Positions 11,616 through 64,000 of a DNA stretch of 64,000 nucleotides are shown here, piece by piece. The stretch lies in IMG/VR virus record IMGVR_UViG_3300029418_000119; one strand, given 5' to 3'. The DNA is from a virus. A program made the translations under genes and the position numbers. The first letter of the stretch is position 1. Each line of letters begins with the position of its first letter. The notes under the pieces are model-generated. The model had not been told where the DNA came from. It saw nothing but the letters and a program-made list of their open reading frames with translations, and searched no databases.

Positions 11616-11700
11616 GGGGATATGGTGAAATTGGCAGCCACGCTTGATTCAAACTCAAGTGTCGAAAGACGTATCGGTTCAAATCCGATTATCCCTACCA
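11616..11700 (+). tRNA. tRNA-Leu (anticodon CAA), CCA encoded
   Basis: Acceptor GGGGATA/TATCCCT, anticodon loop TTCAAAC, long variable arm, T-loop TTCAAAT. Confidence 0.75.
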
Positions 11701-11900
11701 TGAAGATCAGTTGTTCTAGCTCGTTCGGGGATTGGCCGTACATTGGCGACCGGAAAGACGTCATACCGGTAAAGGACGTCAAGCCAGACAAGAAGAGAAA
11801 TAAGGTGTAAGCCGACTAGCTATCGGATAAATACTCTTCGGTTCGCCAGAAAACTAGAATGTAAAACGAATGGTTGGCTGTTTCTGATCTTCTTTTATAT

Positions 11901-11983
11901 GCGCCCGTGGTGGAATCGCAGACACAGGAGACTTAAGATCTTCTGCCAGAGATGGCGTGCGGGTTCAAGTCCCGCCGGGCGCA
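11901..11983 (+). tRNA. tRNA-Leu (anticodon TAA)
   Basis: Acceptor GCGCCCG/CGGGCGC, anticodon loop CTTAAGA, long variable arm, T-loop TTCAAGT. Confidence 0.75.
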
Positions 11984-11990
11984 TTTATAT

Positions 11991-12066
11991 CTGGGCGTAG
12001 CGAAGTTGGCATCGCACCTGTTTTGGGAACAGGGGACCGCAAGTTCAAATCTTGTCGCTCAGACCA
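11991..12066 (+). tRNA. tRNA-Pro (anticodon TGG), CCA encoded
   Basis: Acceptor CTGGGCG/CGCTCAG (one GU), anticodon loop TTTGGGA, T-loop TTCAAAT. Confidence 0.75.
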
Positions 12067-12070
12067 ATTC

Positions 12071-12130
12071 CTATTATTCCCAGCTCCTTAGCAGTAAGGC
12101 AGTAGGATGCTTCTCCAGTAAGCTGGGTAT
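12071..12130 (+). repeat. about 57-nt hairpin element, copy 1 (CTATTATTCCCAGCTC ... CAGTAG ... GTAAGCTGGGT)
   Basis: Shares conserved ends and a central CAGTAG with a copy at 12337-12392; stem CCCAGCT/AGCTGGG. Confidence 0.4.
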
Positions 12131-12134
12131 ATGA

Positions 12135-12205
12135 TGCGCCATCGCCAAGCGGTAAGGCAGAGGACTTTGACTCCTCCATCACAGGTTCGACCCCTGTTGG
12201 CGCAA
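12135..12205 (+). tRNA. tRNA-Gln (anticodon TTG)
   Basis: Acceptor TGCGCCA/TGGCGCA, anticodon loop CTTTGAC, T-loop TTCGACC. Confidence 0.7.
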
Positions 12206-12210
12206 TTTAT

Positions 12211-12292
<82 letters not shown>

Positions 12293-12336
12293 CGGTCATG
12301 AATCGTTGTTGTTCATGGTTGAACTCCTTTGACCAC

Positions 12337-12392
12337 TATTATTCCCAGCTCGCCAGTGATGGTGCAGTAGTGCTTTGTAAGCTGGGTTTTCA
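12337..12392 (+). repeat. about 57-nt hairpin element, copy 2
   Basis: CTATTATTCCCAGCTC...CAGTAG...GTAAGCTGGGT; see copy 1. Confidence 0.4.
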
Positions 12393-12393
12393 T

Positions 12394-12468
12394 GCAGCGG
12401 TCGTACAACGGCTAGTACATCAGCCTTCCAAGCTGAGGATGAGGTTTCGACTACCTTTCGCTGCTCCA
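12394..12468 (+). tRNA. tRNA-Gly (anticodon TCC), CCA encoded
   Basis: Acceptor GCAGCGG/TCGCTGC, discriminator U, anticodon loop CTTCCAA, T-loop TTCGACT. Confidence 0.65.
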
Positions 12469-12649
12469 ATCTTGTATGGGTAGGATCTTTAGCGGTCAGA
12501 TCCGGCCGCGCCTGTGCAAGATACCACCCAGAAAGGGGCTAACGAAATTATCCATGTACGTTATTCTCGGCTCGCTCGAAAGAGTGCAGCGTGCCTTTGC
12601 AAGCCGAGCATCCCAGCCTAGTGATGCCAGTTGCTAGGTTGGTTCTTAT

Positions 12650-12725
12650 GCGACTGTAGTTCAATTGGCAGAGCGTCAGATTTCCAATCTGAATGTTGCG
12701 GGATCGTCCCCCGTCAGTCGCTCCA
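12650..12725 (+). tRNA. tRNA-Gly (anticodon TCC), second copy, CCA encoded
   Basis: Acceptor GCGACTG/CAGTCGC, discriminator U, anticodon loop TTTCCAA, T-loop ATCGTCC. Confidence 0.6.
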
Positions 12726-12952
12726 CACGCAGCCCCTTACGCTGCACCGGTTACTCAGAGCCGAAAGGAACCTATATGTTACGACATGGTTGCCAAGAGT
12801 GATCATATTGGAACGCGACGTAGCTTGGATAGTGAGAATTAAATTCTGAGGTATACGGCTGGATAGCTTAATGGTAAAAGCGCTCGGAAACACCGAGAGA
12901 TGAGGTTCGATTCCTCCGCTGGCATCGCGCCGACGAAAGTCGGCGTTTGCAT

Positions 12953-13029
12953 GGGATAGTAGCTCAGTTGGTCAGAGCTGGCGGCTCATAACCGCTTGGT
13001 CGGGAGTTCGAATCTCTCCTGTCCCACCA
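12953..13029 (+). tRNA. tRNA-Met or Ile2 (anticodon CAT), CCA encoded
   Basis: Acceptor GGGATAG/CTGTCCC, G1-C72 (elongator type), anticodon loop CTCATAA, T-loop TTCGAAT. Confidence 0.75.
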
Positions 13030-13165: not shown

Positions 13166-14642
13166 ATGAAAACTGAAGCATTACGGAGATATTACACAAC
13201 TTCATGGGTGGCAGATTGAACCGGTTTCCTGTATCACAGGAGGCAGTCCATGCCAAGATTTGAGTCAGGCCGGTAAACGTGAAGGTTTGGCTGGTGAACG
13301 CTCTGGATTGTTCCTTGAAATGATTCGTGTGATTACAGAAATGAGGGAGGCCACTAATGGAGAATATCCAAAATTCGCAATCTGGGAAAATGTCAGAGGA
13401 GCTTTCAGCTCAAGCAAAGGTGAAGACTTCAGATGTGTGTTGGAAAGATTTGCACGCATTGTCGAGCCAGACGTTTCAATTCCTCGACCTTCAGGGAAGA
13501 ACGGAAAGTGGGCAAAATCTGGAGCGATTTCCGGTAATGGATGGTCTATTGCATGGAGATTGTTCGACGCTAAATACTGGGGAGTCGCCCAGCGTCGCCA
13601 GAGAATCGCGCTTGTCATGGATTTTGGAGGACAACGTGCCTCAGAAATTCTATTTGAGCGCACGAGCATGTCAGGGGATTCTTGTGAGAGCATCCCGGCG
13701 TGGAAAACCTTTGCCCGAACTCCTGAAGCAAGCGTTGCTGGATATGATCGAATGGTGGAATCCAGGAACTCTGTCACAGGTGGTGCAGAAAGTGAAGGAA
13801 CAAGAAGGTCTGGAAGAGAAGGAATTGGACGAGTATTGGAGTCAGACCATCGAGAGACTTCGACTCGATGCACAGAACCTGCAGCCTACACTCTAAAAAT
13901 CCGTTCTGGATGTGAAGGTGGCGGTAAAGGCGCTCTGGTTCAAACTGAATTGAGCGCAACGATTTCTACGTTACAAGACCAGACGCTGATTTGCTTGGCA
14001 GAAAATCCCTCTTTACATAATTTAAAACAAAAGATTTCGCCGGTGGTGTTTGAGAGCCACAGTCAAGACGCTCGATACACTCAGCTGAGTGATACAAGTC
14101 CGACTTGTACTGCTCAGTGGGGAACTGGTGGCAATAATATGCCACTGGTCATTGAGAAGAAAGCCTTTGCGATGCAACGCATTGGTGAATACAAGGAAAG
14201 TGAACAGGCTAGTACGATGAAATCTCGTGATTACAAGGACGCTACTGACCTGATTACAGAAAAAGAAACGAAGAATCTACGATGGATTGTTCGCCGTTTG
14301 ACTCCTTTGGAGGATGAACGGCTTCAGGGGTTCCCTGATGGATGGACAGATATCGGTGACTGGATTGATGAGAACGAAAAGAAGCATAAAACTTCTGACG
14401 CAGTTCGTTATAAGGCACTCGGCAATTCAATCGCATTACCGCAATGGTATTGGATTTTTCAGAAGATGAAACCGTATATCGGTGAGAATCCTACTCTTGG
14501 TAGCCTCTTCGATGGGATCGGCGGCTTTCCGTTAGTATTTCAAAGCACATATGGTGAAGGTACTGCCATTTGGGGGTCAGAAATTGATAGCTTTTGCGTT
14601 GCAGTAACTAAGAAGCATTTTCCAGAAAAGCAAAGAGGATAA
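13166..14642 (+). pseudogene. C5-cytosine DNA methyltransferase, circularly permuted motif order and frame-disrupted at homopolymers
   Basis: In-frame motifs in the order III (KHYGDITQL), IV (GGSPCQDLS), VI (ENVRGAF), VIII (QRRQRIALV), TRD, IX (RRLTPLEDERLQGFPDGW), X (YKALGNSIALP), then an internal Met followed by I (LFDGIGGF) and II (SEID), then a stop. ATG 13166 is out of frame by one base at an A4 run (13169-13172). A second +1 shift at a T4 run (13622-13625) brings a protein-like frame-1 segment (YLSARACQGILVRASRRGKPLP) into the gene, ending at a stop at 13894-13896. Confidence 0.6.
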
Positions 14643-51892: not shown

Positions 51893-51965
51893 AATCAGAG
51901 CTTTGGTGTGGTATACTTATAGTGTCACATCAAGGCTCTTTATAGTAAATGTAAGGAGTCTATTT

Positions 51966-53123
51966 ATGGAAAGACGTAAAGATAGTAAAGGCAGAGTTTT
52001 AAAAAATGGAGAAAGCCAAAGAAAGGATGGCATGTATCAATATCGATGGACTGATAAAACTGGAAAACGTCACACAATTTATGCGAAAGATTTAAAAGTT
52101 CTTCGAGAAAAAGAAAATAATGCTAGTAAAATAATTTCTCAAGGGATAGATTTTGAAGGCGGTAAAATAACAACATATCAGTTTCTTATAAGATATTATG
52201 AATTTAAGAAAACATCAATAAAGAAATCGAGTTTGAAGACATATTATACAACGACAAACAAGTTGAAGGATACGTCTATCGGTAATACAAAAATCATTGA
52301 CGTAAAAATTTCAGACGCAAAACAACTGATTATTGATTTGAGCCAGAATGGGTTGAAATACAGTACAATAAAAACTATAAAAACACTGATAAAAGCTGCA
52401 TTTAAAATGGCTCAAGAAGATGATTTAATTTTAAAGAATCCGTTTGATTTTCAGCTGAATGAAGTTATAAAAAACGACACTAAAAAAAGAGTCGCATTAA
52501 CTGAACAACAGTATTCTGATTTGCTTGAATTCGTTTTATGTGATCGAGTCTTTCATAAGTATTATGATGACATCGTATTTTTGTATGAAACTGGAATTCG
52601 CGTAAGTGAATTTTGTGGATTAACACTTTCGGACATTGATTTTGTGAAACATGAAGTTGTAATTGATAAACAACTCATCAAAACCTCAAAAGGAGAACTC
52701 TACATCACAGATCCAAAATCAAAAGCTGGGTTTCGGACGATTCCATTGAGCGCTGAAGCATATCACGCGATTAAAGCCATTATCAATCGTCGGCCACAAA
52801 CAAACGAGATGATGGTCGATGGTTATTGTGGTTTCATCTCAATTCATTCAAATGGAACCCCGAAGACCTCTTGGAACATTGAATATGAGCTAAGAGAAAT
52901 TGCAAAGGCGTATAACAGCCTTTACCCAGAGTGCCAATTACCAAATCTCACACCTCACGTTCTTCGACACACTTTTTGTACCAGAAAAGTTAGCAGCGGC
53001 ATGAACATCAAGGCAGTTCAATATCTAATGGGGCATAGCTCAGTACAAATTACGCTCGATGTATACACATCAATCGACGCTGATATGATAAAAACTGAGT
53101 TTGCAAAAGTGGCACAGATGTGA
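51966..53123 (+). CDS. int: tyrosine integrase (phage integrase family)
   Basis: C-terminal HVLRHTFCTRKV ... LMGHSSVQITLDVYT; ATG after AAGGAG; lies at the right end of the AT-rich block. Confidence 0.85.
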   Translation: MERRKDSKGRVLKNGESQRKDGMYQYRWTDKTGKRHTIYAKDLKVLREKENNASKIISQGIDFEGGKITTYQFLIRYYEFKKTSIKKSSLKTYYTTTNKLKDTSIGNTKIIDVKISDAKQLIIDLSQNGLKYSTIKTIKTLIKAAFKMAQEDDLILKNPFDFQLNEVIKNDTKKRVALTEQQYSDLLEFVLCDRVFHKYYDDIVFLYETGIRVSEFCGLTLSDIDFVKHEVVIDKQLIKTSKGELYITDPKSKAGFRTIPLSAEAYHAIKAIINRRPQTNEMMVDGYCGFISIHSNGTPKTSWNIEYELREIAKAYNSLYPECQLPNLTPHVLRHTFCTRKVSSGMNIKAVQYLMGHSSVQITLDVYTSIDADMIKTEFAKVAQM

Positions 53124-55585: not shown

Positions 55586-55933
55586 ATGAAACCCCCACTG
55601 ATGGATTCTGCGAGCGGCAGACTGTCAGCGGCTTTATTGTTGACGAAAAACAAAGGTAGGGATACAATAAAAAAAGAATGTAAAACCGGAAGGGAGCGTG
55701 CCGCCGTGGAAAACCAGAGAGACTTCTGCACAGAATGCCGCAGAGAAACAAACTACACCCTGAAGAAAATCAAAATCAACCAGACCATCCGGGAAAAGGA
55801 ATATACTTTTGAGATTACGGCTGCTTTCTGCAACGAATGCGGCGGCGAAATGGGGATTCCCGGTCTGATGGACTATAACATAAAGGAAATCGACGAGCAG
55901 TACCGCAAAGCCAGTGACAACATTGGCGGATAA
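55586..55933 (+). CDS. YgiT-type (MqsA-like) zinc-finger protein
   Basis: CTECRRE ... CNECGGE separated by a beta-rich segment (TLKKIKINQTIREKEYTFEI), as in YgiT-type zinc fingers; no HTH domain. Confidence 0.35.
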   Translation: MKPPLMDSASGRLSAALLLTKNKGRDTIKKECKTGRERAAVENQRDFCTECRRETNYTLKKIKINQTIREKEYTFEITAAFCNECGGEMGIPGLMDYNIKEIDEQYRKASDNIGG

Positions 55934-55964
55934 GAATAGAAATAATCAAAAAGAGGCTGATAAT

Positions 55965-56732
55965 ATGTCAGAAGAAATTATTCGGTATGAAGAAGTTTCA
56001 CCAACGGCCAAACTTTGGCGTTATATGGATTTAGCTAAGTTCATTTCTTTGATTGGAAAGAAAAAGTTGTATTTTGCATCACTAGAATCATTTGAGGATA
56101 TATTTGAAGGAGCGAAAGGAACAGTAAATCGTAAGGGAATATGGGATGGGTTTTATTCGGATTTTTTCAAAAAAGCAATACAAACGGTCCCCGGAATGAA
56201 TCGAGAAGATTTGACAGATGAATATATAGAGAAGAATTCTATGAGGCTATTGTCTGAATGGGGTGCGATGGGCGAACTGGAAAGAAAAAATGTGTTTGTG
56301 AGTTGTTGGCATTGCAATCAGTATGAATCTGATGCTATGTGGAAATTATACTCTGCAAATGTGAAAAACGCACTTGCAATTCAGACAACAGGGCGACAAT
56401 TATTTGAAGCACTTGGAAAAGACCCATCAGTAGAAATAGGAAAAGTACGGTACATTGACTATACAAAGCAGTTTGCTCCCATAAATGGCGCATATTGGTA
56501 TAAACGAAAATCGTTTGAGTATGAACAAGAAGTAAGGGCAGTTACGCATGTGAGAAAAGCTGCTTGTTGTGGGGTTGAAAAAGATGTCGATATTGAGAAA
56601 TTGATTGCAGGAGTCTATATTTCGCCGTATGCACCTAAATGGTTTGAAGATGTAGTGCGTGATATTACAGAAAAGTATGGGTTGAATAAACCAATCTTTT
56701 ATTCGGAAATGAAAGCAAAACCATTTTACTGA
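55965..56732 (+). CDS. DUF2971-family protein
   Basis: LWRYMDLAKFISLI..KKLYFAS...FEDIFEG and later VFVSCWHCNQYESDAMWKLY match the DUF2971 pattern; AT-rich insert in GC-rich surroundings. Confidence 0.5.
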   Translation: MSEEIIRYEEVSPTAKLWRYMDLAKFISLIGKKKLYFASLESFEDIFEGAKGTVNRKGIWDGFYSDFFKKAIQTVPGMNREDLTDEYIEKNSMRLLSEWGAMGELERKNVFVSCWHCNQYESDAMWKLYSANVKNALAIQTTGRQLFEALGKDPSVEIGKVRYIDYTKQFAPINGAYWYKRKSFEYEQEVRAVTHVRKAACCGVEKDVDIEKLIAGVYISPYAPKWFEDVVRDITEKYGLNKPIFYSEMKAKPFY

Positions 56733-56750
56733 TATGCTATTATAAACAAA

Positions 56751-56793
56751 CAGCCGCCCAGCATGACCATAGCGGTCAACTGCTGGGCGGCTG
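56751..56793. terminator. bidirectional terminator hairpin (cagccgcccagca ... tgctgggcggctg)
   Basis: 13-bp stem between convergent DUF2971 (+) and hicB (-); T-rich on the minus-strand side. Confidence 0.55.
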
Positions 56794-56808
56794 TTGTTGT
56801 ACTTATAC

Positions 56809-57186
56809 TTATGCTAGATGGAGTTTCTCTTTCAGCGCATCCTGAAGGACGCCGGAAAAGTTGATGTGTGCCGATTCGGCGGCATCGTTGAGCCAGCCGG
56901 GAATGGAAAGGGTTTTCTTTACGGGTCTGTACCGCTTTTCGTACTCTTCCATATCGAAAGGCACCATCACCACAAAATCTTCCGGATCAACATGGAGTGC
57001 AGAAGGGACAGAAGGCTCCGGGCAGACTTTGCAATCTTCCAGCATAAGGCCGATGGCATCCTGTGCCATGCGGACAGCTTCGTCCATGGTATCGCCTTGG
57101 GTGAAGCAGCCCTCAATATCGGGAATCTCAACAGAGTACCCGGTTTCTTCCGGGTGAAAAATTGCGGGATAGAAAATAGCATTCAT
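56809..57186 (-). CDS. hicB: HicB-family antitoxin
   Basis: MNAIFYPAIFHPEETGYSVEIPDIEGCFTQGDTMDEAVRMAQDAI typical HicB N-terminal domain. Confidence 0.7.
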   Translation of the reverse strand: MNAIFYPAIFHPEETGYSVEIPDIEGCFTQGDTMDEAVRMAQDAIGLMLEDCKVCPEPSVPSALHVDPEDFVVMVPFDMEEYEKRYRPVKKTLSIPGWLNDAAESAHINFSGVLQDALKEKLHLA

Positions 57187-57326
57187 AATGTGACCTCACC
57201 TTTTATAATTCAACAAACAATCAATGTACCTTCACATAACAGGCCTACATTATTGGTTGGAAATTGTAGAATAGTCTATGCAGTGCTTCGCAGTTTCAGA
57301 ATATGGAGTCTACAATCATCATATTC

Positions 57327-57518
57327 TTACTTTTTGAGTCCGGCTAATTTGAGAATATTTTTCTCGGTACCGGGTTTCAGATCCTTTGCGTGAAATGGAA
57401 CGACAGTGGTTTTGTTGGTAGTTGGGTTATGGTACTTGTAGTGTGACCCATTTGCACTGACTAAAACAAAGCCGTTCTGCTCCAGCAAGCGAATCATTTG
57501 CTTGGGAGTCATCGGCAT
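57327..57518 (-). CDS. hicA: HicA-family mRNA interferase toxin
   Basis: MPMTPKQMIRLLEQNGFVLVSANGSHYKYHNP...VVPFHAKDLKPGTEKNILKLAGL. Confidence 0.8.
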   Translation of the reverse strand: MPMTPKQMIRLLEQNGFVLVSANGSHYKYHNPTTNKTTVVPFHAKDLKPGTEKNILKLAGLKK

Positions 57519-57594: not shown

Positions 57595-57640
57595 AAGCCG
57601 CCCAGCGACCTTACGGTCTCGCTGGGCGGCTTATTTTTTG
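57595..57640. terminator. bidirectional terminator hairpin (aagccgcccagcgacc ... ggtctcgctgggcggctt) plus T-run
   Basis: Stem shares GCCGCCCAGC / GCTGGGCGGC with the hairpin at 56751-56793; terminates the XRE gene. Confidence 0.6.
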
Positions 57641-57957
57641 CGTTTCCACAACAGATATTCTTCGTAGCGGTGCATCTCGTTTTGTTCTTCTTCGGTCAGG
57701 CGCTGGCGCTGTTTGCGAGCCTCGTCTGAGGGGTCGATGTCGGTCAGACCCAGCAGGTAGTCGGCAGAGGTGCCATAGTACCTGCAAATGGCAATCAACA
57801 TCTCGTGGTTTGGGGAACTCTTTTCATGCTCCCAACTGCGGATGGTAGAGGTTGCAACGTTAAGGGCTTTGGCGAGTTCTTCCTGCGTTTGGTTATTCCA
57901 ATCTCGCAGGTCGGCTAATCGTGCTCCAATCATCTTTTTCCCGCCTTTCTTTGCCAT
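57631..57957 (-). CDS. XRE-family helix-turn-helix transcriptional regulator
   Basis: QTQEELAKALNVATSTIRSWEHEKSSPNHEMLIAICRYYGTSADYLLGL. Confidence 0.7.
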   Translation of the reverse strand: MAKKGGKKMIGARLADLRDWNNQTQEELAKALNVATSTIRSWEHEKSSPNHEMLIAICRYYGTSADYLLGLTDIDPSDEARKQRQRLTEEEQNEMHRYEEYLLWKRKK

Positions 57958-58110
57958 AAGTATAGGTGTTTCATATCACTTTTGGTAAAAAACGCCGAGA
58001 ATCTTGTTAATTTGCCTCGAAAGTGATAAGATACTTGTTAGTATAGGCCGAAAGTGCTAAGAATATTATCACTTCCGCCGCAACGCTAAGGCAAAGCGAG
58101 GGAATCCCCG

Positions 58111-60147
58111 TTGGAACAACTGATCGACTTTCACGCACCGGAAGTGCAGGCGGTGCTGGATACGCTACTAAAAGATAAATCCACCGGTAAAAACATCATC
58201 TGGGCCACCGACCCGCCGGAGGAACTGCAAACGGTGATGTACGAACCTGTCACGGATAGATCCCAGATCACCACCCAGCAGCTCGGGCTGACCCACTACG
58301 AGGTGGTGCTGCCCCGGATGATGAAGCAGACCGACACCCAGCAGCAGCGCACCCGCAAAAAAGGCGAGGTGTTCAGCCCCGCATGGGTCTGCAACAAGAT
58401 GAACAACGCACTGGACGCCGACTGGTTCCGTGGGCTGGGGGCAGGAGAGACCGCCGGGCAGTTTACGGTGGAGCTGCCCCAAGGCTGGCAGACGGTGGAA
58501 ACGCCGGTGCAGTTCCCGGTTTGCGGGGGCAGGACCCCGGCATGGGTGCGGTATGTGCAGAGCCGCCGCTTGGAGGTGACCTGCGGCGAAGCCCCCTTTC
58601 TGGCGTCCCGGTACGATGCCGCCACAGGCGAGATGATCCCGGTAGCCCGGCGCATTGGCATTCTGGACCGCAAGCTGCGTGTGGTAAGCGAGAACGCCGC
58701 CACAGAGGACGAATGGCGCAAATATGCCACCCATGCGGTGCAGTCTACCTACGGCTACGAGTATCAGGGCGATAATCTTTTGCTGGCACGGGTCAACCTT
58801 CTGCTGACCTATGCAGAGCACTTGCAAGCCCGCTGGCAGCGCAAACCCACAAAAGAAGAGTTACAGCCTATCGCCAACATCATCAGCTGGAACATGTGGC
58901 AAATGGACGGCTTGCACCGGTCCGTGCCCGGCGGCAAGCCTCAGCCGGAGGCAGAACAGCTTAATCTCTTTTCCATGTTCGGGGCGGCAGAGCCGCAGCC
59001 GCCCACGGTATCCTGTAAAGTGAAAAACTGGCGCAAGGGCAGCCATGGAACGACCCAGAACTTTGAAACTATTCAGGAAGGGAGTACCAGCATGAAGTTT
59101 GATTATGTCATCGGAAACCCGCCGTATCAGGAAATGTATAACGGAAATTCTTCAGGAGCAAATTCGGTATATGATAAATTTCTTGATGCATCACATGAAG
59201 TGGCAGATAAAGTCGAAATGATTCATCCCGCACGGTTCTTGTTTAATGCGGGATCTACGCCTAAAGCTTGGAATGAGAAGATGTTAAATAATCCGCATTT
59301 TAAGATTTTGTCGTATGAATCTAATAGTGACGTGATTTTTCCTAATTTGTCAGCCCCTATTGAAGGAGGCGTTGCAATTTCATACTGGGATAAAAAGAAG
59401 GATTTTGGAGTAATTGGAACGTTTACACCGTTTGTGGAATTGAACTCTATTTTAGAAAAAGTCCGTGATAATGGGAAATTCTCTTCTTTTGCTGATATTG
59501 TAGTTACAAGCTTTGCATACCACTTCACACAGAAAATGCATGATGATTATCCTGATGCGGCTTCGTTGATGAGTAAGGGACACGCATACGATTTGAAGTC
59601 TAATGTGTTTGATAGACTTTCAATGATTTTTTATGATGAAAAACCAAATGATGGTCATGAATACATTCGAATTTTTGGGCGAGATGGAAGCAATCGAACG
59701 CTTAAATATATCAGAAAAGAATATGTCAATAAAGTATCAAATCTTGACAAGTACAAACTTTTAATTTCTAAAGCAGATGGCGCATCAGGGCATATCGGAA
59801 AACCAATCCCGGCAAGAATTATTGGCAAGGCAGAAATTGTTGAACCATGGGTTGGTTCAACAGAAACATTTCTGGGAATTGGAAGGTTTGAAACACGCAA
59901 TGAAGCAGAAAACTGCTTGAAATACATAAAAACTAAATTTGCAAGAACAATGCTTGGTGTTTTGAAGGTGACGCAAGATATCACGCCAACAAAATGGAAA
60001 TATGTTCCCCTTCAAGACTTTACTGCCCATTCCGACATTGATTGGAGCAAGTCGGTGGCGGAGATTGACCAGCAACTTTACCGCAAGTATGACCTGACCG
60101 CAGACGAGATCGAATTTATCGAGACCCATGTAAAGGAGATGGCATAA
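58111..60147 (+). CDS. gamma-class N6-adenine DNA methyltransferase with C-terminal target-recognition region (Eco57I-like)
   Basis: Motif X-like GEVFSPAWVCNKM, motif I-like LEVTCGEAPFL, LLARVNLLL, motif IV VIGNPPYQE, then about 340 aa of AT-rich putative TRD; TTG start after GAGGGA. Confidence 0.65.
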   Translation: MEQLIDFHAPEVQAVLDTLLKDKSTGKNIIWATDPPEELQTVMYEPVTDRSQITTQQLGLTHYEVVLPRMMKQTDTQQQRTRKKGEVFSPAWVCNKMNNALDADWFRGLGAGETAGQFTVELPQGWQTVETPVQFPVCGGRTPAWVRYVQSRRLEVTCGEAPFLASRYDAATGEMIPVARRIGILDRKLRVVSENAATEDEWRKYATHAVQSTYGYEYQGDNLLLARVNLLLTYAEHLQARWQRKPTKEELQPIANIISWNMWQMDGLHRSVPGGKPQPEAEQLNLFSMFGAAEPQPPTVSCKVKNWRKGSHGTTQNFETIQEGSTSMKFDYVIGNPPYQEMYNGNSSGANSVYDKFLDASHEVADKVEMIHPARFLFNAGSTPKAWNEKMLNNPHFKILSYESNSDVIFPNLSAPIEGGVAISYWDKKKDFGVIGTFTPFVELNSILEKVRDNGKFSSFADIVVTSFAYHFTQKMHDDYPDAASLMSKGHAYDLKSNVFDRLSMIFYDEKPNDGHEYIRIFGRDGSNRTLKYIRKEYVNKVSNLDKYKLLISKADGASGHIGKPIPARIIGKAEIVEPWVGSTETFLGIGRFETRNEAENCLKYIKTKFARTMLGVLKVTQDITPTKWKYVPLQDFTAHSDIDWSKSVAEIDQQLYRKYDLTADEIEFIETHVKEMA

Positions 60148-63100
60148 TGGCTGGCATAACCCTGCGCACTGCCCGGCAGGTGGTGCCCATGATCTACGCC
60201 TATACCACCCCGGAAATTGCTCGGCACAACGGCTGGACGAAGATCGGCTACACCGAGCAGTCGGTGGACAAACGCCTGAAACAGCAGACCCACACCGCAG
60301 ATGTGCTGTTCCACGAGGAGTGGCGGGGCAATGCCGTCTACGACGACGGCAGCGGCGAGGTGTTCACCGACCACGATTTCCACGCCTACCTCCGCAAGCT
60401 GAACGTGGAGAACGACCGCAAAAACGAGTGGTTCCATCTGGATGGGCAGCAGTCCCGGCGGTATTTTCAGGATTTCCGCATGAACCGGGGCCGGGTGCAG
60501 CTGGATGCCGCCATCTCCTACACCCTGCGGGAGGAGCAGGCAAGGGCTGTCCGCGACACCAAGACCTATTACCGGAGCCACCCCGGCGGGGAATACCTCT
60601 GGAACGCCAAGCCCCGCTTTGGCAAGACCCTCTCCGTCTACGACTTCTGCAAGCAGGTCGATGCACAGACGGTGCTTATCGTCACAAACCGCCCCGCCAT
60701 CGCCAATAGCTGGTACAGCGACTATGTGCGCTTTCTGGGCAGGGAGTCCGGCTATCTGTTTGTCAGCCATGTGGATGCCCTTGCCGGGCAGCCCCATGTG
60801 CTTGACGAGCAGGGCTATCTGGATGCCGCCGCACAGGGCGAGGAACTGTATAAGCGCATTGAGTTCGTCAGCCTGCAGGACATGAAAGGCTCCAAGTATT
60901 TCGGCGGCGAGTACGACAAGCTGCGCCACCTGACCGAGCTGAACTGGGATGTGCTGGTCATCGACGAAGCCCACGAGGGCGTGGACACCTACAAGACCGA
61001 CCTTGCCTTTGACCGCATCTGCCGCCGCTTCACGCTGCACCTGTCCGGCACGCCCTTCAAGGCACTGGCGAACGATAAGTTTGCCGGGGATGCCATCTTC
61101 AACTGGACCTACGCCGACGAGCAGGCTGCCAAGCGGAACTGGCAGGGCGCACCGGGGCAGCAGAACCCCTACGCAAACCTCCCCATGCTCAACCTCTACA
61201 CCTACCAGATGTCCGAGATCATCCGGGACGAAATCCGGCAGGGCGTGGAGATCGACGGCGAAACGCAGGAATTTGCCTTTGACCTGAACGAGTTCTTCAA
61301 GGTGAAGCCCAGCGGTAGCTTTGAGCACGAAGCCGAGGTGGACCGCTTTCTGGATGCCATGACTACCCAGAATAAATTTCCGTTTTCCACCCCGGAGCTG
61401 CGTGCCGAACTGAAGCACACCTTCTGGCTGCTGAACCGGGTGGACAGCGCCAGAGCGCTGGCGAAAAAACTGCAGGCGCACCCGGTGTTCCGGGACTATG
61501 AGGTGATCCTTGCCGCCGGAGACGGCAAACTGGACGACACGGACGAGAACCAGAAGAGCTTTGACCGGGTAAAAGCCGCCATCGCTCACCACGAAAAGAC
61601 CATCACCCTGTCGGTGGGGCAGCTGACTACCGGTGTGACTATCCCGGAGTGGTCGGCGGTGCTGATGCTCTCCAACCTGAAAAGCCCGGCGCTGTATATG
61701 CAGGCAGCGTTCCGTGCCCAGAACCCCTGCCTTTTCTACGAAAACGGCACCTTCCGCCGCAAAGAGAACGCCTATGTGTTCGATTTTGACCCTGCCCGCA
61801 CTCTGCTGATCTACGAGCAGTTCGCCAACGACCTTTCACAGGACACCGCCAGCGGCAAGGGCGACACCGAGGAGCGCAAGGCGCACATCCAGAATCTGCT
61901 CAACTTCTTCCCGGTCATCGGCGAGGACGAGGAAGGGGAGATGATCCCGCTGGATGCAGAAAAAGTCCTCAGCATCCCCCGGAAGATCAAGTCCAAAGAA
62001 GTGGTGCGGATGGGTTTCCAGAGCAATTTTTTGTTCCAGAACATTTCCAACGTGTTCAGTGCCCCGCAGGAGGTGCTGGACATTCTGCAAAACTTCCAGC
62101 CCATCAGCGAGGCGAAGGCAAAGCCCATCCAGATCACCCCGGAGACCGGCGCAGACCTCTCCCTGAACGACAAGGGCGAGGTGGATTTGGACGAGGGCTA
62201 CGTCATCGGCAAGGCAGCGGATGTGTTCGGGGCGAAGATCTACGAAAGCACCCCCGCACTGGACACCGCCCTGCAAGACCTGACCGATGCCCCGGCTCCT
62301 TCCAAAGAAGAGCATCTGGAACCCCTGAAAAAGAGCATCACCAAGGAGATCATCACCCCCATGGTGGAGCAGGCAAAGCAGGAGTATGGCCGGGACCTGA
62401 AGCTGTCCGACCAGAAGCGGTTTGAGAGCACCGCCAAGGCAAAAATGGACGTAGCGGTGAACAAGGTGGTGGACAACTACCGCATCGACCAGAGCCAGCT
62501 GGAGACCCAGCGCACCCAGCAGCTGCAAAGCTGCACCACCGCCCAGCAGCGCCAGCAGGTGAACCGGGAATTTGACGCAAAGCAGCAGCAGAGCACCGCC
62601 GCCCTGATGGAGACGCTGCAATCCACCATCCAGCAGACGGCGCAGGAAATGCAGCAGACCATCGTGCGCACTGTGGAGACCAACCAGAAGGAGCAGGAGA
62701 AAAAGGGATACGAGGACACCGTCCGTGACCATCTGCGGGGCTTCTCCCGCACCATCCCGTCCTTCCTCATGGCCTACGGCGACGAGACCGTGACACTGGC
62801 AAACTTTGACCAGATCATCCCGGAGAAGGTCTTTCAGGAGGTCACCAGCATCACGCTAGAGCAGTTCCGCTTTTTGCGGGACGGCGGGCCGTACATCAAC
62901 CAAGCCACCGGACAGGAGGAGCACTTTGCAGGCCACCTGTTCGACCCGGTAGTGTTTGACGATTCGGTGAAGGAGTTCTTGAACCTGAAGGTCAAGCTGG
63001 CGGATTACTTTGACGAGAGCCGCACCGAGGATATCTTCGATTACATCCCGCCCCAGAAAACCAACCAGATCTTCACCCCCAAGTGGGTGGTGAAAAAGAT

Positions 63101-63455
63101 GGTAGACCTGCTGGAGCAGGAAAACCCCGGCTGCTTCGATGACCCCGGCAAGACCTTCCTGGACCCCTACATGAAGTCCGGCCTGTACATTACGGAAATC
63201 GTCAAGCGCCTTTACCGCAGCGAGAAGATGCGGCAAGCCTTCCCGGACGATAACGCCCGGCTGGAACATATCTTTGCCAAGCAGGTCTATGGGCTTGCCC
63301 CCACCGAGATCATCTACCGCATTGCCATCAGCTACATTCTGGGTTTTGCAAAGGGTCACGGCATCACCGCCCACCATATCCGTCAGGCGGATACGCTGGA
63401 ATTTGCCAAGGCGGGCACCATGGAAAGGGAACTGGATAAGATTTTCAGAGACTGA
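60147..63455 (+). CDS. GIY-YIG/T5orf172-like domain plus SF2 DEAH helicase (ResIII-like) plus coiled coil plus partial N6-methyltransferase N-terminal half
   Basis: N-terminal MIYAYTT...GWTKIGYTEQSVDKRLKQQ; Walker A NAKPRFGKT, DEAH VLVIDEAHEG, motif III LSGTPF, motif VI QAAFRAQN; Q-rich coiled coil; C-terminal QIFTPKWVVKKM...FLDPYMKSGLY...QVYGLAPTEI resembling methyltransferase motifs X-I-II. Start overlaps the mod stop (ATAATGG). Confidence 0.65.
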   Translation: MAGITLRTARQVVPMIYAYTTPEIARHNGWTKIGYTEQSVDKRLKQQTHTADVLFHEEWRGNAVYDDGSGEVFTDHDFHAYLRKLNVENDRKNEWFHLDGQQSRRYFQDFRMNRGRVQLDAAISYTLREEQARAVRDTKTYYRSHPGGEYLWNAKPRFGKTLSVYDFCKQVDAQTVLIVTNRPAIANSWYSDYVRFLGRESGYLFVSHVDALAGQPHVLDEQGYLDAAAQGEELYKRIEFVSLQDMKGSKYFGGEYDKLRHLTELNWDVLVIDEAHEGVDTYKTDLAFDRICRRFTLHLSGTPFKALANDKFAGDAIFNWTYADEQAAKRNWQGAPGQQNPYANLPMLNLYTYQMSEIIRDEIRQGVEIDGETQEFAFDLNEFFKVKPSGSFEHEAEVDRFLDAMTTQNKFPFSTPELRAELKHTFWLLNRVDSARALAKKLQAHPVFRDYEVILAAGDGKLDDTDENQKSFDRVKAAIAHHEKTITLSVGQLTTGVTIPEWSAVLMLSNLKSPALYMQAAFRAQNPCLFYENGTFRRKENAYVFDFDPARTLLIYEQFANDLSQDTASGKGDTEERKAHIQNLLNFFPVIGEDEEGEMIPLDAEKVLSIPRKIKSKEVVRMGFQSNFLFQNISNVFSAPQEVLDILQNFQPISEAKAKPIQITPETGADLSLNDKGEVDLDEGYVIGKAADVFGAKIYESTPALDTALQDLTDAPAPSKEEHLEPLKKSITKEIITPMVEQAKQEYGRDLKLSDQKRFESTAKAKMDVAVNKVVDNYRIDQSQLETQRTQQLQSCTTAQQRQQVNREFDAKQQQSTAALMETLQSTIQQTAQEMQQTIVRTVETNQKEQEKKGYEDTVRDHLRGFSRTIPSFLMAYGDETVTLANFDQIIPEKVFQEVTSITLEQFRFLRDGGPYINQATGQEEHFAGHLFDPVVFDDSVKEFLNLKVKLADYFDESRTEDIFDYIPPQKTNQIFTPKWVVKKMVDLLEQENPGCFDDPGKTFLDPYMKSGLYITEIVKRLYRSEKMRQAFPDDNARLEHIFAKQVYGLAPTEIIYRIAISYILGFAKGHGITAHHIRQADTLEFAKAGTMERELDKIFRD

Positions 63456-63480: not shown

Positions 63481-63521
63481 AAAGGCGGCTGTCTGCATGG
63501 GTGCAGATGGCCGCCTTTTTG
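63481..63521 (+). terminator. rho-independent terminator
   Basis: aaaggcggc...gccgccttttt with internal ctgcatgggtgcag hairpin. Confidence 0.75.
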
Positions 63522-63749: not shown

Positions 63750-63989
63750 GTGCGTCATATCCTACTGGGTATATATTATCTGGCGCAAAATGGCGGCAGA
63801 TCCAGCAGCTCCGCTGCTGCGTTTTTCCACGCCAAGCTGTTGAAACGGAGATTAGAAAAATCATTTATAGTCAGATTATTTACATATAAACTTGATATAG
63901 AAAATCCGATTATCCGCATAAATACAGCATTTAAGGGCTGTTCATCACTTGAAAAAATAAGTGTTTTACCACGAATTTACCATAATTGA
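63750..63989 (+). CDS. hypothetical protein
   Basis: ORF after the terminator; no motif. Confidence 0.2.
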   Translation: MRHILLGIYYLAQNGGRSSSSAAAFFHAKLLKRRLEKSFIVRLFTYKLDIENPIIRINTAFKGCSSLEKISVLPRIYHN

Positions 63990-64000
63990 ATATGAGTCTT

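Follow-up and report, generated by a model that had tools for sequence, protein, structure and literature searches.

A low-GC block inside a Faecalibacterium methyltransferase gene is a probable exchangeable catalytic and recognition module

The mod-res locus and its composition step

The DNA considered here, 64,000 nucleotides (nt) from IMG/VR virus record IMGVR_UViG_3300029418_000119 and called the window at its full length, carries toward its end a two-gene operon, mod and res (Table 1), and our subject is a block of low guanine-plus-cytosine (GC) content inside mod. The 678-amino acid (AA) Mod protein starts at a TTG codon, and the two genes overlap by one base (TAATG). Mod scores 56.7 bits against Pfam Eco57I (PF07669; cut-off 25.3) over AA 307–406, and its AlphaFold model (predicted local distance difference test, pLDDT, 88.5; predicted template modeling score, pTM, 0.86) matches the folds of PglX/BrxX, LlaBIII/LlaGI, BpuSI, DrdV, MmeI and M.BseCI. 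A single NPPY (motif IV) is present at AA 336–339, and the motifs follow the gamma order, with X and I–III ahead of IV–VIII and the target-recognition domain (TRD) last. We predict that Mod is an Eco57I-like gamma-class N6-adenine DNA methyltransferase. Searching PDB sequences with Mod and Res gave no meaningful match, only fold comparison being successful, and NCBIfam holds no model for either protein.

Mod consists of two halves. In the N-terminal one (ModN), which would bind S-adenosylmethionine (AdoMet), motifs X (EVFSPAWVCNKM), I (LEVTCGEAPFL) and II–III were read from the sequence, and its DNA is 93–100% identical across the alleles described below. The C-terminal half (ModC, AA 328–678) comprises NPPY, the remaining catalytic strands to ~AA 430, the TRD (~AA 431–628) and a conserved helical tail; in the model the TRD lies C-terminal to the Rossmann core, as in MmeI, LlaGI, PglX and CamA. 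In PADLOC the halves match two separate 'Type II methyltransferase' profiles, the one for ModC (348 positions) being matched end to end from M328. The 1359-position Type IIG profile (REase_MTase_IIG, PDLC03626) is matched at full length by neither protein: Mod covers positions 1000–1359 only and Res 537–629 only.

Along mod (58111–60147) the GC content goes from 60% to 36.5% and back to 59%. Windows of 200 nt gave 54–68% for 58200–59099, 32.5–43.5% for 59000–60099 and 52–63% beyond 60000, a sharp step. The abrupt GC mosaic within the methyltransferase reading frame, described in an earlier note on this DNA, is therefore real. GC at codon positions 1/2/3 (GC1/2/3) is 62/44/76% in ModN (58111–59055), 44/36/30% in the cassette (59134–59994), 60/35/82% in res and 63/41/77% in the nearby groEL. 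The cassette, with a GC fraction of 0.365, lies 19 standard deviations under 861-nt windows from adjoining high-GC genes (0.600 ± 0.012). Since the drop is greatest at third positions (GC3 from 76 to 30%), the step reflects codon usage and is no consequence of amino-acid composition. The stretch of low GC is slightly broader than the exchanged one: its shoulders at 59056–59133 (GC3 54%) and 59995–60147 (GC3 60%) are of intermediate composition and are conserved across alleles.

Discrete cassette alleles between conserved anchors

Alleles of the block were sampled through its 5′ anchor and by protein search, the contigs sharing either that anchor or the same ModN and Res. An exact 41-mer of the 5′ edge was found on nine contigs (eight Faecalibacterium species genomes, a complete F. 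prausnitzii chromosome and F. tardum included), which carry different cassettes diverging from ~59134 onward. Close Mod homologues are either 97% identical, with the same allele, or ~80% identical, with all differences confined to the stretch from residue 342 to residue 628. Compared as DNA with loci that carry other alleles, the window is 93–100% identical over ModN and Res and 47–80% identical over 59113–60003, with sharp edges near 59130 and 59995. At least ten alleles (A–J) occur in Faecalibacterium, and the window carries allele A. Among isolates, F. prausnitzii strain 2 has allele F and F. tardum CLA-AA-H175 allele H. Mean protein identity among the alleles is 96–97% in the anchors and drops to the values of Table 1 in the two sub-blocks between them; every allele has 37–42% GC vs. 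58–62% upstream.

Discrete alleles of one internal segment thus stand between near-identical flanks at an orthologous locus, as in modA-type genes, and comparison of related loci, which the earlier note had recommended, yielded alternatives of exactly this block. The same note held that a low-GC block with the same boundaries in relatives would speak for an old acquisition rather than a swap; such blocks are present, but their sequences differ, which argues for swapping. Its view that the swapped block holds NPPY and the TRD stands in part. The low-GC block does encode the catalytic region, NPPY included, together with the TRD, but the swapped tract is only 59134–59994; the ribosome-binding site, the ATG and the NPPY codons, taken for swapped DNA, instead form a conserved 5′ anchor.

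Some alleles are themselves mosaic. Alleles C, D and F are 84–87% identical in DNA over the catalytic sub-block and 47–53% over the TRD, which indicates that crossovers also occur at the catalytic/TRD junction. Allele I is only 20–26% identical to the other alleles in either sub-block. It derives from a distant subfamily (L009:2272–3231) and has its tail replaced too, with the 3′ crossover at the mod/res junction, so that, supposing a contact with Res, the system does not strictly need the tail in the form it usually has. In locus L009 and in L017 the 3′ end of ModN (equivalent to 58892–59055) is only 73–78% identical to other loci and the first 340 nt of res (equivalent to 60148–60490) are 98–99% identical; the mosaic therefore reaches beyond the cassette. 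Metagenome-assembled genome (MAG) HGM13277 contains two 2-kb contigs (L010, L011) with the same 5′ anchor and different cassettes (A and D), and this break at the cassette suggests co-existing strains with different alleles in one sample.

Res and a family of four modules

The Res protein has an N-terminal T5orf172/MUG113 domain, a Pfam ResIII match at AA 125–304 and the helicase motifs GKT, DEAH and SGTP of superfamily 2 (SF2). A search for [NDS]PP[YFW] found no such motif in Res, hence no NPPY. Its C-terminal AdoMet-binding half (RC) stops exactly where fused relatives go on into MKFD..NPPY, and, the helicase aside, is better conserved than any other part of Res (55–73% vs. 30–46% for the middle region, in loci of the window type, T1). 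A natural RC-ModC fusion (P0259) gave a confident predicted fold (pLDDT 89) that best matches CamA/M.BseCI over its full length (E 5e-16, template modeling score ~0.5). The model suggests that RC and ModC together fold as a complete CamA-like methyltransferase.

A search of ModC against 1.84 billion cluster representatives revealed three contexts: free-standing proteins of 340–350 AA that start exactly at the Met, fusions of 620–720 AA and single chains of 1260–1560 AA. Four modules (ModN, RC, ModC and the Res core) were present in every system with enough flank among 80 metagenome loci, RC being recognizable by the signature QIFTP..M, FLDPxxKSGxF, YG... They are arranged as ModN-ModC / Res-RC (the window type, sometimes split into ModN / ModC), as ModN / Res-RC-ModC or as ModN / RC-ModC / Res. 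From sequence, the family would always have two AdoMet-binding halves, ModN and RC, and one catalytic/TRD half. The free-standing ModC of L020 has AT-rich non-coding DNA on its 5′ side and a Res orthologue on its 3′ side. This locus (L020:110–4239), from an unrelated lower-GC organism, displays the same within-operon step (GC3 27% in ModC vs. 56% in Res). No description of the four-module family was found in the literature searched, the coverage of which was incomplete.

Origin of the alleles and alternative explanations

According to preliminary best-hit data, each allele in its variable part resembles a distantly related system, a different one each time, more closely than it resembles its sister alleles. 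The nearest relatives of alleles D, C and G are free-standing genes: L035 (68% protein identity; locus of 30–38% GC), L044 (65%) and L022 (64%), respectively, the latter two in loci of ~40% GC. Allele E is closest to a 1447-AA single-chain enzyme (65%), F and H to lineages whose ModN is only 67% and 71% identical (75% and 76% for the alleles themselves), and I to a subfamily otherwise 26–31% identical to allele A (50–54%). Partner domains of these relatives are only 36–50% identical or are differently arranged. The pattern points to repeated import and not to divergence in place, so the alleles appear to be polyphyletic, derived from differing outside sources. A phage origin of the cassette was considered and rejected, as the two IMG/VR matches are the same Faecalibacterium chromosomal locus (allele C) in contigs called viral.

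We consider it probable that the low-GC block is an exchangeable catalytic and recognition module (ModC) of a two-gene, ATP-dependent restriction-modification-like system. Mod would be the gamma-class N6-adenine methyltransferase and Res a T5orf172 nuclease fused to an SF2 helicase. The interior (59134–59994) would have been replaced repeatedly through recombination with diverged homologous modules, mostly of low-GC systems, with crossovers in the two conserved anchors and sometimes at the catalytic/TRD junction. Each swap would presumably alter the sequence methylated and, through Res, restricted. Crossovers could plausibly fall in either anchor. The 5′ one, the MKFDYVIGNPPYQ codons, is the most conserved stretch of the family even as DNA, with runs such as AAYCCGCCGTATCA, and the 3′ one, the C-terminal tail, is a motif conserved family-wide. 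The GC3 of the shoulders (54% and 60%) against 30% in the interior fits old resident anchors with later-arriving interiors. Identical copies of allele A occur in two island contexts, with a KAP NTPase or with a PDC-S31-like gene and HicAB, hence reassortment within the species is ongoing. Of the recent horizontal replacement of the specificity half claimed in the earlier note, replacement is supported by the alleles and their polyphyly. Its recency is undemonstrated for the window allele, low GC being common to all alleles in equal measure, a lasting trait of their pool that gives no date for this genome.

Several points weigh against the exchange of specificity modules. No near-identical donor of allele A turned up: in the 80 metagenome loci and 150 cluster representatives compared, protein identity over the variable part does not go above ~55% (best outside match 51–55%). 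That the alleles differ in specificity is deduced from TRD divergence alone. In B. subtilis the DnmA-YeeB-YeeC system, similar in gene content, showed neither restriction nor activity against phages (PMC9973331), which warns against taking such systems to be active. ModC is also lower in GC than its neighbors throughout the family (below the upstream 1 kb in 83% of 70 diverse metagenome loci, by a mean of 5.8 points), and such a compositional tendency could contribute besides recent transfer. The same trend would favor a functional constraint (for instance through tuning of the translation rate, through avoiding target sites of the system itself or through the amino acids that the TRD needs) over foreign origin as the cause of low GC. 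We regard this as unlikely, since the drop is greatest at third codon positions, the polyphyly of the alleles attests transfer independently, and ModC is fully high-GC in some hosts of 60–63% GC (L032, L036; GC3 84%), low GC therefore being unnecessary for function. Still less likely is a single ancient acquisition of a low-GC module with diversifying selection on the recognition domain in place afterwards. Identical boundaries and low GC in all alleles agree with it, and defence specificity genes are often under diversifying selection; however, the cassettes differ by 20–53% in DNA and the flanks by 0–7%, each allele is nearer to a foreign system than to its sisters, allele I belongs to a different subfamily, and the interior GC3 of 30% is un-ameliorated next to partly ameliorated shoulders.

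Programmed variation within the cell, through a shufflon or invertible cassettes, a diversity-generating retroelement or repeat-mediated phase variation, is highly improbable. Inversions are known from related Type I and PglX loci, and tyrosine and serine recombinases occur in some neighborhoods of mod-res, but these belong to neighboring mobile elements and vary between strains. Blastn and tblastn detected no second copy of the cassette, the anchors, ModN or Res parts in the 64-kb window, a repeat search of the window revealed no meaningful inverted or direct repeats flanking the cassette, and mod contains no homopolymers of at least 7 nt and no simple repeats. The parts of a shufflon or phase-variable locus (silent copies with inverted repeats and a recombinase, or a repeat tract) were thus not found, and silent cassettes can be ruled out for the whole window. 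Because silent copies, inverted repeats and simple repeats are missing, exchange takes place at the population level and is not programmed switching. The chance that an assembly chimera or strain mixing fused reads of two organisms is practically negligible. Metagenome assemblies do break at the cassette, as in HGM13277 with its two short contigs of alleles A and D; yet the exact 678-AA protein is found on at least 24 independent contigs from separate samples and assemblers, some above 200 kb, the mod reading frame is intact, and the same architecture is present in the complete F. prausnitzii isolate chromosome NZ_CP186691.

Internal start and a possible shared subunit

At the beginning of ModC, AGGAAGGGAG (59076–59085) is followed by an ATG (59092–59094) seven nt past GGGAG, in the frame of mod and opening MKFDYVIGNPPYQE. 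The internal ribosome-binding site and ATG pointed out in the earlier note are thus present, and they coincide with the start of a module that is free-standing elsewhere; they mark where a true evolutionary module begins. The further proposal of a stand-alone beta-class-like module holds insofar as free-standing homologues exist, but a free ModC would not be a complete beta-class enzyme. It has no motifs X and I–III of its own and would need an AdoMet-binding partner.

In 62 upstream-fused loci the first ModC codon is ATG in 56, GTG in three, TTG in two and another codon in one. An anti-Shine-Dalgarno (anti-SD) duplex of −5 kcal/mol or below was found in 76% of fused loci and 79% of free-standing genes, compared with 15–19% of control in-frame positions. 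Relative to synonymous recodings of the same peptide the signal is stronger (−6.7 vs. −5.05 kcal/mol; Wilcoxon p = 2e-6), also after collapsing identical peptides (p = 6e-5), and control positions have no such excess. Just upstream of 59092 no sigma-70-like site was found, which leaves internal initiation on the mod mRNA as the route to any short product. The structure of this mRNA near the start is weak, though not significantly so (z = +1.0).

It is possible, although we rather doubt it, that mod yields both full-length Mod and a free 351-AA ModC (from ATG 59092) that serves the orphan RC on Res. Free ModC would then complete RC and supply the nuclease-helicase with target recognition, a single cassette swap would move modification and restriction to a new target at once, and ModC would act like an HsdS that also bears the catalytic loop. 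Some features weaken the case for an internal start: the peptide encoded there is purine-rich in itself, and the SD sequence is missing in about a quarter of loci. Conservation of the Met was rejected as proof of a start, the position being hydrophobic anyway (M in 50 and F, I, V or L in 23 of 79 fused cluster representatives). In McrB, internal initiation yields a regulatory short form (PMC12707154); for a methyltransferase half, no report of internal initiation was found in the literature searched.

Comparison with known systems

The locus resembles the Type III mod genes (modA, modB and modH of Haemophilus, Neisseria and Helicobacter) in its mod-res operon with a conserved res and an SF2 (ResIII) helicase in Res, in the conserved mod ends around a hypervariable recognition region and in its many discrete alleles. 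In modA the recognition-domain alleles are also lower in GC than their flanks, and mod alleles have been acquired en bloc from unrelated species and further shuffled (PMC3311624, PMC1557822). Type III Mod, however, is beta-class with a central TRD, whereas Mod here is gamma-class with a C-terminal one, and the swap takes in the C-terminal catalytic region together with the TRD. There is no phase-variable repeat tract in mod here, and in place of the C-terminal PD-(D/E)xK nuclease of Type III Res there is an N-terminal T5orf172/GIY-YIG-like one, the C-terminus being an AdoMet-binding half.

With the Type ISP enzymes LlaGI and LlaBIII the system shares a nuclease, an SF2 helicase, a gamma-class adenine methyltransferase and a C-terminal TRD (folds 4xqk and 5ffj), and its single-chain relatives of 1260–1560 AA have the Type ISP order. 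The window system is made of two genes and not of the single polypeptide found in Type ISP and in relatives P0132 and L024/L028/L034; the nuclease is T5orf172-like and not Mrr, and ModN is an extra AdoMet-binding half. PglX/BrxX, MmeI, BpuSI and DrdV are the best structural matches, gamma-class with a C-terminal TRD, but Mod has no N-terminal nuclease and only 8–12% sequence identity to PglX and the Type IIL/IIG enzymes. In PglX/BrxX and Type IIL/IIG enzymes the TRD alone sets specificity and can be re-engineered or swapped. The bacteriophage exclusion (BREX) partners brxA/B/C, pglZ and brxL are present neither in the window nor in eight related neighborhoods. The system belongs to none of Type III, Type ISP and BREX: methyltransferase class and nuclease type place it outside the first, its two genes outside the second and the missing partner genes outside the third.

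By gene content it is also like DnmA(YeeA)-YeeB-YeeC of B. subtilis and Vibrio, where a nuclease-less MmeI-like methyltransferase, an SF2 helicase and a T5orf172/GIY-YIG protein lie side by side in a defence island of low GC (PMC9973331). In that cluster, unlike here, the helicase and T5orf172 are not joined in one protein and the methyltransferase forms a single undivided polypeptide, and neither cassette alleles nor split halves have been described. The proposed role of ModC, one exchangeable module dictating both methylation and restriction, would recall Type I HsdS and the Type IIB BcgI B subunit; those have no catalytic motifs, whereas ModC has IV–VIII and would both recognize the DNA and supply the rest of the active site. 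CamA of Clostridioides difficile and M.BseCI, matched by the RC-ModC fusion, likewise combine an N-terminal gamma-class methyltransferase with a C-terminal DNA-recognition domain, but are orphan or Type II single chains with neither a helicase-nuclease partner nor a split.

Genomic setting

The host appears to be a Faecalibacterium chromosome of ~60% GC, with groES/groEL, ModN and Res host-like in composition. In related strains mod-res has the same place downstream of groEL, within a variable defence island in which it adjoins either a KAP NTPase or a PDC-S31-like gene and HicAB, with GmrSD and integrases frequent. An XRE regulator is kept next to mod in all contexts. Between groEL and this regulator the window has a low-GC insert (55586–57518); at this spot other strains have the KAP-family NTPase, which makes it a second swappable slot in the island. 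Past the res terminator (63840–64000) the GC content falls again to ~35%, and the neighbors downstream of res vary by strain (GmrSD, integrases, VapE-like genes).

Positions 1–53300 are a 42% GC element within the ~60% GC host. It encodes phage-type genes for replication and nucleotide metabolism, among them RNA ligase/polynucleotide kinase, a DnaB-like helicase, RecJ, DNA polymerase, exonuclease V, DNA ligase and NrdD, a DNA methyltransferase (13260–14642) and a cluster of eight tRNAs (11616–13029), and is closed by a tyrosine integrase (51903–53123) immediately ahead of groES; in related strains an acyltransferase gene takes its place. The element is probably a large prophage, and no close match to it was found in the phage collection.

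Table 1. Features of the mod-res locus and adjoining genes, with positions in the window
Feature	Coordinates	Strand	Evidence
mod, 678-AA predicted gamma-class N6-adenine DNA methyltransferase (ModN-ModC fusion)	58111..60147	+	Pfam, AlphaFold, fold matches
ModN, predicted AdoMet-binding half, 60% GC	58111..59091 (AA 1–327)	+	PADLOC MTase_II PDLC03390, AA 13–310
Internal Shine-Dalgarno-like AGGAAGGGAG then ATG (M328, first ModC codon)	59076..59094	+	anti-SD duplex −7.9 kcal/mol
5′ recombination anchor (putative) encoding MKFDYVIGNPPYQE (motif IV)	59092..59133	+	identical 41-mer among differing cassettes
Cassette, catalytic sub-block (motifs V–VIII, AA 342–430)	59134..59400	+	mean 64% AA identity among alleles
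Cassette TRD (AA 431–628), allele A	59401..59994	+	mean 43% AA identity (31–60%), A–H and J
3′ anchor, C-terminal tail (KWKYVPLQDFT...EFIETHVKEMA) and stop	59995..60147	+	94–100% AA identity, A–H and J
res, 1102-AA predicted T5orf172/GIY-YIG-like nuclease, SF2 helicase and C-terminal AdoMet-binding half	60147..63455	+	Pfam ResIII, MUG113, T5orf172
RC, predicted C-terminal AdoMet-binding half of Res (QIFTPKWVVKKM, FLDPYMKSGLYI, QVYGLAP...)	62967..63452 (Res AA 941–1102)	+	motif reading, conservation
Hairpin then T-run, likely operon terminator	63481..63518	+	inverted repeat I10
mod-regulator intergenic region, two overlapping imperfect inverted repeats AAAGTGATAA/TTATCACTT, candidate operator	57968..58083	.	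I1, I14
XRE/HTH (helix-turn-helix) regulator, divergent from mod, possible controller protein	57631..57957	-	Pfam HTH_3/HTH_19/HTH_31 on orthologue, L001–L008
HicA	about 57327–57518	-	
HicB	56809–57186	-	
PDC-S31-like candidate defence protein	55914–56732		
MqsA-like zinc-ribbon protein	55586–55933		

Implications

Exchange of recognition cassettes is of a known kind; the family showing it here is uncharacterised and unusually modular, and what it swaps is an entire gene-like module, catalytic motifs included. In this family the natural breakpoint of amino-methyltransferases between AdoMet binding and catalysis serves both as a gene boundary and as a recombination anchor. The shared subunit is the part that would be new, if true: it would allow a change of target without killing of the host, by a route unlike those of Type I and Type ISP, and would be a further example of internal translation initiation with a function in restriction-modification.

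Among bacteria of the human gut Faecalibacterium is one of the most abundant; it is therapeutically interesting, and its genetic manipulation is difficult. With at least ten interchangeable specificity cassettes, its strains would have differing methylation and restriction barriers, with consequences for phage susceptibility, gene flow, the engraftment of strains and protocols for transformation.

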